Shown: positions 12,901 to 15,900 of the stretch, piece by piece
Layout of the letters: each line of letters starts with the position of its first letter
Position numbering within the stretch: the first letter of the stretch is position 1
Assembly (NCBI GenBank): GCA_052327205.1
Contig: CM126214.1
Coordinates: 154,938,001-155,002,000, forward strand
DNA: 64,000 nt
Source: Somniosus microcephalus
Lineage: Eukaryota
Direction of reading: 5' to 3'
Position numbers and translations under genes: made by a program
Notes under the pieces: model-generated
Databases searched by the model: none
The model's input: the letters and a program-made list of their open reading frames with translations, nothing else
What the model was told of the DNA's origin: nothing

Positions 12901-15900
12901 GTTAATCGAAAGTTTCCTGTATGTTTTAATATAACTACTGTTTAAAGTTTAGTGAGTGATCCCTTCTGGCTTTTTTTGAATGGACAAATGGATAGATCTA
13001 GAGCAAATGGTGCAAGGTTGTTTTCACTGGTTGGCAAATCACTTAATGAGGGAGCATAAATTAAGGATTACCACTGGACAAATGAAGAGGTTCATTAAAA
13101 TCAAATAAAAGTGGCTATTGAGGCTATAACATCATTTAAAATGGAATTGGATACGTATTCGAAAAGCAGGAATACACGATGACGCAGAGAAATGGGATTA
13201 GAGTGGATAGCTCTAGTTGAAGAGTTAGCATCAGTGAAAGCACAATAAGCCAGACAGCCTCTTGTGGTATAGTTTTTGTGATTTAGAATGAGCCACGAAT
13301 ATTTGAACCTGGCTGCTTTAATGCAATGTATAGTCATTCTCGGTTACTGATAGAATTTCAATCAGAACAGTTTCCGCTTTCAGCATGTTCTGACTGCTGC
13401 CGTAATTTACAGTATGCTGACAGACAGCTGCTACTTGAAAGCATCAGGTTTTCATCTCCAAATAAACAATCGTGAAATCTTCGTGTGTGTGATATAAAAT
13501 ATATCCTATGCACCTGCATTTCACAGTCACTCTTGTAGAATGTCAGTGATGTTAATTATCCTGTCATTTATATGCATTGCATCAGAACCTCCCAGTGCTA
13601 CCACACATGGGGTTCTCCAAAGGACGACCGTGACATGCTGATATAACTTCACAGTGTCAATCTGTGACCAGTCACTGAGAGGTGTGAGAAAACAGCTTAA
13701 GATGTGTCACCCTTTTATATTGTATTCCCCCCCTCCCCCACCCCCAAAGCATGGCAAGCACCTAGTCAACGTAAAGAAATAAGGAGTCCACCTTGTGGAG
13801 AACTACAGGTATAAACCCACCTATAATACCATGCCATATCTTTGCACATCAACGAGCTGCATCATCCTGAATATGAAGCTGATTCTTCAGCTCTTTGTAC
13901 TTCTTGACCTTGTGACTTGGGGTAGCTGCTGAGATTTGTGCACTCCATTTTTGGTCAATATATTTTGTTTAACTATTGCTGGTGGTTTATCTCAAATTTC
14001 AATATTTTCAAATCTTGTCTTTAGATTCAACAGGAAACCAAAGAGAGGTATACAGTACTTGCAAGAACAAGGAATGTTAGGCACAACAGTTGAAGACATT
14101 GCACAGTTTCTTCAACAGGAAGAAAGATTAGATTCGGTAAGATTTATATTAATTAGTGTGACGTGCATAAAAATTCTATATTGGCTATTCAAGGGGCAGT
14201 GGTAATTTTTTTCCCATTTCTAGTTATTTCTGAATGTGCATTTTGTCAAAAACATAATGACCAGTGTCCTAAAATGTAAAATAAAACAAATTTTAGAATA
14301 CAGGAAGTTTTCCTTCTCGTAGATTGGAATGTGTGCTTGTTATTCTTAAGCATAACACATCTGTTCTTTTGTGGTCCATGTCAGGGTAGGATTAAGTTTA
14401 CTTGTCCTAACAAGGAACTTTAGACCGCTATTCATCCTAAATTAATCTAAAAGTATCACTGAAGTGGAGAACATTTTAAAACTTTACCTCCCACGTAATT
14501 TATATTTTGTACCCATGATTGTGTGCATGATTACAGTTTATTAAACTGCAGGTCTGTAATTCCGTCTAATGGACTCATTTAATTGTGAGTGGGTGGGGAG
14601 GAAGTTTGGTTTGTGAAGATCATCTGGCAGCCCACGTGAGTGGATGTTCTGTACTTGGTCTGTTGTATATTTCATGACATTTTAAAAGAATGCATACTCC
14701 TAAGATTGAGATTATCTCAACTATTCATCTGAAGAATATGCCTCTCTATCAATTTACCTGTCCCCTCCCTGCCTCCCATGAACACCATCTTGGCATGATT
14801 TATTTTTATTTGGAGTAAAAATGTGATTGAAGGACCTTCTCCTGGAGTATTCTTTTAATTACTCCAATGTTAGCATATCTTTAGATTCACTGTGAACTGA
14901 AGGAATGATCCTTTTTCACTTTTTTGTATTTACATTTATTTTTTGTGTTGTACCTTTTAGAATCCATGTTTCAACCTAATGTACCAAAACTTTAACCTAA
15001 TTTAGCATAACTGAATGTCCTTGTGCATTTCAACAGAACCAAGTGGGTGAATTTCTGGGGGAGAACAGCAAGTTCAACAAAGAGGTGATGTACACTTACG
15101 TTGACCAACTGGATTTCTGCGAGAAGGATTTTGTGTCAGCACTTCGTATATATCTCGAAGGATTTCGTCTGCCTGGGGAAGCGCAGAAAATTGACCGACT
15201 CATGGAAAAATTTGCAGCTAGATATTTGGAGTGCAATCAAGGGTAATTCAAAAAGTAAACTGTTCATACATTTTAAAATGAGAACTGGGTATTGTTTTAA
15301 AAAAAAAAAAAAAAAAAAAAATTGTACTTTAAAGTTTTAAGCATTTATTTCATTAAGTAATGTCACTTTTTGCCCCCCCCCCACCCAGACAGACACTGTT
15401 TGCAAGTGCTGATACGGCATATGTTCTGGCCTACTCTATTATAATACTGACAACGGATCTGCACAACCCTCAGGTAACTTACTTCAGGAGAAAATATCCT
15501 GTGAGCTGAATATTTGATTTTGTGTTGTGACTGCTGATTTTCCTGAGCTACACAAACACGAGAGATTAGCGTTCAGATGAATTTGGGTTTTGGATTCAGT
15601 CTCGATCTCTCTTCTACTGCCCCCACATTAAAGATGAATATTCCCCATGCCACATGACCATGAAAGGCATATTTTCATTCCCCCTCCCCTGTACTTGTAT
15701 CTCATCAGATTGTTATACAATTAGGCATTGTTGAATTTTCTTGGGACTACCATGGAAGCAGAAAGGTGGTCATGTTTCTCCACAAAATAAAATCTTCCTT
15801 TCTGTTATTGCAAAGAATGGGTGGAACTTTCAACTTCGGCAGGGTGTACAACAGGCAGCTGATCTCCCATCCATTTTACACCACCCGCCAAAGTTGAAAG

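Follow-up and report, generated by a model that had tools for sequence, protein, structure and literature searches.

The question raised by this locus is whether BIG2 of Somniosus microcephalus, whose Sec7 domain has isoleucine at the position of the methionine that contacts brefeldin A (BFA), has lost sensitivity to this drug. The window, that is, the whole stretch of 64,000 nucleotides that was analysed, includes the following features of the gene; coordinates refer to the first letter of the window as position 1.

826..56642, + strand: ARFGEF2/BIG2 gene; its 31 in-window coding exons keep an open frame up to the stop codon
14025..14136, + strand: Sec7 exon 1 (gene model, contig splicing)
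15037..15242, + strand: Sec7 exon 2, with motif 1 (gene model, PF01369, contig splicing)
15178..15180, + strand: catalytic Glu of motif 1, kept (translation, distant-homologue alignment)
15389..15473, + strand: motif-2 exon, with AG acceptor and GT donor (gene model; spliced in three contigs)
15432..15437, + strand: Tyr-Ser of the BFA-sensitivity signature, kept (translation, alignment)
15444..15446, + strand: BFA-contact Met position, now Ile (ATA), residue 432 of the in-window gene model
15456..15458, + strand: Asp of the BFA-sensitivity signature, kept (translation, alignment)
16474..16645, + strand: Sec7 exon 4 (gene model, PF01369, contig splicing)
16486..16488, + strand: second Met of the BFA-sensitivity signature (KNKM), kept (translation)

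The gene model has GT-AG boundaries at all 30 in-window introns and no internal stop. The first 377 BIG2 residues match upstream of the window, with the start ~41 kb before it, and residues 1–1813 of Heptranchias BIG2 were matched collinearly, except for 45–51, across the window and the upstream stretch. PF01369 (Sec7) was matched on three exons, the exon at 15389–15473 corresponding to Pfam positions 118–143. In a quick tree, the window protein fell within the cartilaginous-fish BIG2 clade (SH-aLRT 100), among elasmobranch BIG2 proteins and outside the galeomorph and batoid clades, which points most probably to a squalomorph shark; BIG1 formed a separate clade (100). BIG1 is likewise a separate locus of this genome, on C7. 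The identification of the gene as BIG2 in the initial annotation is thus borne out, both by this placement and by alignment to PDB chains.

Searches of the genome recovered single loci for BIG2, BIG1 and GBF1, along with four cytohesin, three IQSEC-like and one FBXO8-like locus; these counts are lower bounds, and the paralogue names were assigned from motifs. At the BFA-contact position, Met is present in this genome's BIG1 and GBF1, and Leu in the IQSEC-like and FBXO8-like genes. No second BIG2 copy was found in these searches, and a duplicate or pseudogene was rejected, given that the single BIG2 locus found is intact. We also rejected a general relaxation of BIG2: its end branch in the quick tree is not long (0.027, vs 0.021 for Heptranchias), and it has 10 private changes, as does Heptranchias. 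The introns of BIG2 contain an LTR retrotransposon remnant (28755–32690, minus strand), with protease, RNase H and integrase in separate, stop-broken frames, and LINE reverse-transcriptase fragments (21246–22058 and 36162–37079, minus strand). In BIG1 of the same genome (L041, L032; G000:C7), Pro>Ser directly follows motif 2 and Glu>Asp lies a few residues further, in the same loop region.

Translation of the window gives ATA (Ile) at codon 15444–15446, within Sec7 motif 2 of BIG2 (15432–15464). In an alignment to PDB chains, human BIG2 (3L8N) and human BIG1 (3LTL) have Met in the same column, as does the engineered BFA-sensitive ARNO chain 1R8M_E at chain position 145, which we take to be ARNO M194 provided that the construct begins at residue 50. 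The annotated codon, its assignment to the BFA-contact Met and the statement that Met is the norm in BIG1 and BIG2 were all confirmed by these comparisons. The signature of BFA-sensitive Sec7 domains, which we take to be Tyr, Ser, Met, Asp and Met, lacks only the Met at the ARNO-194/GBF1-832 position in the shark protein; Tyr, Ser, Asp and the second Met are present and, like the catalytic Glu, were found intact at the codons listed above, as had been annotated. Human BIG2 and BIG1 differ from the shark motif-2 exon at two residues only, with Met for Ile and Ser for Asn; for human BIG2, 26 of 28 residues in this exon are identical, and the catalytic Glu and the four signature residues are shared. 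Human BIG2 differs from the shark protein by Met>Ile, Ser>Asn, Gln>Glu and Asp>Gly, plus an Asn>His that is common to other elasmobranchs.

The initial annotation had proposed checking whether the codon is ATA or ATG. We compared the window with contigs, rather than raw reads, from 8 of 20 listed runs. Five of the eight span the codon: X1, X5, X14, X17 and X19, from five studies and five coded organisms (A, D, C, E and F, respectively), X1 being possibly the same sample as the window source; contigs of X3, X4 and X9 do not span it. X1, X5, X14 and X17 have no differing letter over 15444–15446. X19 has one differing letter in the 83-base piece that spans the codon, at a position that is not given, and none listed at 15446. 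Hence, no G at 15446 is listed in the contigs of the five covering runs, three of which (X14, X17 and X19) show splicing at the expected exon joints. ATA>ATG is listed at 15150 in X5, X14, X17 and X19 in the same comparison tables, indicating that a Met/Ile change of this kind is detectable in these contigs. Altogether, 11 exonic differences are listed between the covered organisms and the window, of which eight are silent, three change a residue and none lies at a site of the four-residue patch described below. The second ATA of the window, at 15148–15150, is ATG in organisms C, D, E and F, so that this Sec7 position alternates between Met and Ile among sharks.

We conclude that the Met>Ile substitution is genuine and expressed. 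Artefact or decay is extremely improbable, be it an assembly error, a rare allele, a weakened duplicate or A-to-I editing by which the mRNA would again encode Met. In its favour, the data are contigs, in which rare alleles and low-level editing are invisible, and an edited ATI would read as Met. However, the codon is common to five organisms in five studies, which rules out an assembly error or rare allele; the spliced contigs have A, so that at contig level no editing restoring Met was seen; and the single BIG2 locus found has an intact frame.

A comparison across chondrichthyans, likewise proposed in the initial annotation, found Met in every one of 23 records, which represent 22 other cartilaginous fish species, Ile being common to the five coded organisms covered. 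Among 396 close homologues examined, Met is present in all 370 that bear the motif; the 26 without the motif were left unscored, and many records are isoforms, so that 370 is not a count of species. No Ile-bearing relatives were found among the best 120 of 1518 protein-search matches. Of 150 distant BIG/Sec7 representatives, 135 cover the site (124 Met, nine Leu, one Ile and one misaligned), and all of these retain the catalytic Glu. The ten real cases of Met loss in this set comprise seven named fungi, one nematode and two further records that group with fungi; the lone Ile case is the fungus Acaulospora. Including the window, Met loss corresponds to approximately eight changes on the tree. 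We conclude that the Met site is fixed in the vertebrates examined and not across eukaryotes. Natural Met loss is recurrent in fungal Sec7 proteins and occurs in one nematode BIG (P0379, P0383, P0408, P0415, P0427, P0454, P0457 and P0483), and these proteins are possibly a better place to seek selection by BFA. We found no report of the shark variant, or of Met>Ile at this site, in the full-text literature, mostly without subscription papers.

The Ile is accompanied by three further substitutions, which together with it form a four-residue patch:

15465..15467, + strand: Asn (AAC) for Ser, seven residues past the Met site (alignment)
16498..16500, + strand: Glu (GAG) for Gln; all 293 homologues that match the full pattern have Gln
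16528..16530, + strand: Gly (GGC) for Asp; all 293 homologues that match the full pattern have Asp

Of the 926 columns that are invariant in 26 other jawed-vertebrate BIG2 proteins, three are changed in the window protein (Met>Ile, Gln>Glu and Asp>Gly), and these private changes all fall within 29 residues. Compared with 19 cartilaginous fish, it has its 10 private changes in 1121 columns; four of these, Ser>Asn included, lie within 29 residues, and only two lie downstream of Sec7. Under random placement across the 1437 in-window residues, clustering within a 30-residue window, a width picked after seeing the data, gave p = 0.0016 for the 27-taxon set and 0.006 for the 20-taxon set. At a width of 100 residues, p was 0.017 and 0.16, respectively, and the 27-taxon value reached 0.05 at 200 residues. 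None of 18 control rows fell below p = 0.18 in this test. No difference from the window is listed at the Gln>Glu and Asp>Gly sites in X14, X17, X19 and X9, indicating that the patch arose before these organisms diverged. That Met, Gln and Asp never vary among the other vertebrates examined suggests that the changes are not simply neutral.

Every new residue of the patch is also found in distant homologues. Asn at the Ser>Asn site occurs in frog BIG2 and is common in distant BIG/Sec7 proteins; the frog proteins concerned (Pyxicephalus and Aquarana; P0293 and P0294) also carry Cys in place of the Arg that is otherwise constant in the MNRG motif. Skate BIG2 (P0012, P0144–P0146 and P0149) has Pro>Arg adjoining the same Ser, suggesting that this loop tolerates change in cartilaginous fish. 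Of the 10 distant records without Met, 7 have Glu at the third site, as against 31 of the 124 with Met (Fisher p = 0.006, with no correction for kinship); nine of the ten Met-loss records group with fungi, so kinship inflates this association. In the same set, neither Asn (p = 0.75) nor Gly (p = 1.0) was associated with Met loss.

Other large ArfGEFs have been described before in which this Met is naturally lost. According to PMC3776844, the Met touches BFA by van der Waals contact in the Arf-GDP-BFA-Sec7 complex. The same paper describes GBF1 M832L (Met>Leu) as a drug-selected change that protects human cells and is natural in dog MDCK cells, that by itself rescues human cells from BFA toxicity, and with which BFA action is reduced, not abolished. 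Arabidopsis BIG5 M731L is described in PMC6539719 as BFA-resistant and fully complementing the mutant, and Arabidopsis BIG3 as naturally BFA-insensitive (PMC6539719 and PMC13714605). The annotated site and role of the Met agree with PMC3776844 and PMC6539719. BFA sensitivity is not required of all BIGs, and such differences may be neutral, according to PMC553965.

Dog (MDCK) GBF1 and human GBF1 M832L resemble shark BIG2 in that the same Met is lost, naturally and by selection, respectively, from a vertebrate large ArfGEF. They differ in that GBF1 is not a BIG, the replacement is Leu, resistance was measured and the whole cell is protected. Arabidopsis BIG3 (natural) and BIG5 M731L (engineered) are closer in being BIG-class, functional and BFA-insensitive, but they are plant proteins, and BIG5 M731L has Leu. 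Dog GBF1, AtBIG3 and AtGNL1 serve here as the naturally BFA-resistant large ArfGEFs for comparison, a class marked by a wild-type gene without the key Met, and shark BIG2 likewise lacks it; dog GBF1 and the engineered mutants replace the Met with Leu, and shark BIG2 with Ile. A single Sec7 change has also been linked to BFA resistance in Plasmodium falciparum, in a point mutant obtained under BFA selection (Baumgartner 2001, PMID 11555294; Wiek 2004, PMID 15500915). The Plasmodium mutation is reportedly Met>Ile. The Acaulospora morrowiae Sec7 protein (CAG8710289.1, P0383) naturally has Ile in the same column, together with Glu at the third site; its catalytic Glu is intact, but it is fungal and a single partial record.

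The best explanation, to which we would give roughly even chances, is that an intact, spliced BIG2 carries a tolerated, co-evolved patch of Ile and its three neighbours, with weaker BFA trapping as a by-product and cells that stay sensitive. Ile would act like Leu, weakening BFA trapping of BIG2; the other three changes would accommodate Ile, or would have been permitted by it; and BFA would not be the selective agent. The intact gene, the unremarkable branch length, the cluster and the tolerance of Met>Leu in GBF1 and Arabidopsis BIG5 support this reading. By analogy with those alleles, BFA sensitivity of the shark enzyme is likely to be lower and, by inference, the protein would work as they do. 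Counting against this explanation, Ile is beta-branched and may not mimic Leu; the four other signature residues are also kept, and in GBF1 Met>Leu lowers BFA action without abolishing it. Because BIG1 and GBF1 keep Met, whole-cell resistance is unlikely, and cells would be expected to remain BFA-sensitive through both, which argues against selection by BFA. The naturally BFA-resistant BIG2 of the initial annotation is supported in part, the Met loss being real and expressed and a lower BFA sensitivity of this one enzyme likely, but the annotation missed the Met of BIG1 and GBF1, with which cells should stay sensitive; it placed the change at the correct site, but missed the known natural loss in other large ArfGEFs and the cluster of four changes. 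An altered Arf specificity of BIG2, which it offered as the other option, has no direct support.

Three other readings of the genuine substitution can be weighed against the same observations. That BFA sensitivity is essentially unchanged, the swap being conservative with no measurable phenotype, is rather unlikely: the signature Tyr, Ser, Asp and second Met are kept, Met and Ile alternate at 15148–15150 among these sharks, and even GBF1 Met>Leu only shifts the dose, according to PMC3776844, but each tested Met change, Leu in all cases, is reported to lower sensitivity in PMC3776844 and PMC6539719, and Met is present in 370 of 370 motif-bearing homologues. Alternatively, positive selection for a retuned BIG2, in its catalysis, Arf preference or autoinhibition, may have driven the four changes, any BFA insensitivity being incidental. 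Tight clustering in an otherwise slow gene fits positive selection as well as it fits compensation, the organisms covered have kept the changes, and in yeast Sec7 the Arf-binding, catalytic surface doubles as the autoinhibitory contact with HDS2 (PMC10927569), so that retuning through a shared Arf/HDS2 surface is possible by analogy. However, in the comparison with cartilaginous fish just two of the private changes are located downstream of Sec7, distant homologues contain every one of the new residues, and three recovered switch exons of class I/II Arf-like type, judged by eye against Arf1, look canonical, with no partner change seen in these three exons of an incomplete ARF gene set; we consider retuning unlikely. 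The genome also contains three intact single-exon ARF6-like genes on three contigs (L043, L044 and L045).

Selected escape from a natural BFA-like inhibitor, or from a pathogen factor acting at the Sec7-Arf interface, would account for the best-known resistance residue being hit, and Met loss in distant proteins is concentrated in fungi, a group that makes or meets BFA (seven fungi, one nematode and two records that group with fungi). Nevertheless, GBF1 and BIG1 both retain Met in this genome, and we know of no source of exposure, making escape very improbable. The boldest formulation, a first naturally brefeldin-insensitive vertebrate BIG that arose by positively selected four-residue remodelling of the Arf-binding/autoinhibitory surface and alters TGN Arf activation, strikes us as distinctly doubtful.

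A BIG2 variant of this kind does not make the animal toxin-resistant, and it reveals no new system. If the remodelling reading is true, shark cells would separate BIG1 and BIG2 functions with a single drug. The cluster amounts to a natural test of epistasis on a small scale, at a surface that does not vary among the other vertebrates examined. If Ile lowers BFA sensitivity, as the co-evolved patch would have it, BFA experiments in these sharks would call for caution, and the gene would provide a natural, evolution-tested BFA-resistant BIG2 allele for vertebrates, which, copied into human BIG2, could split BIG1 from BIG2 functions acutely.
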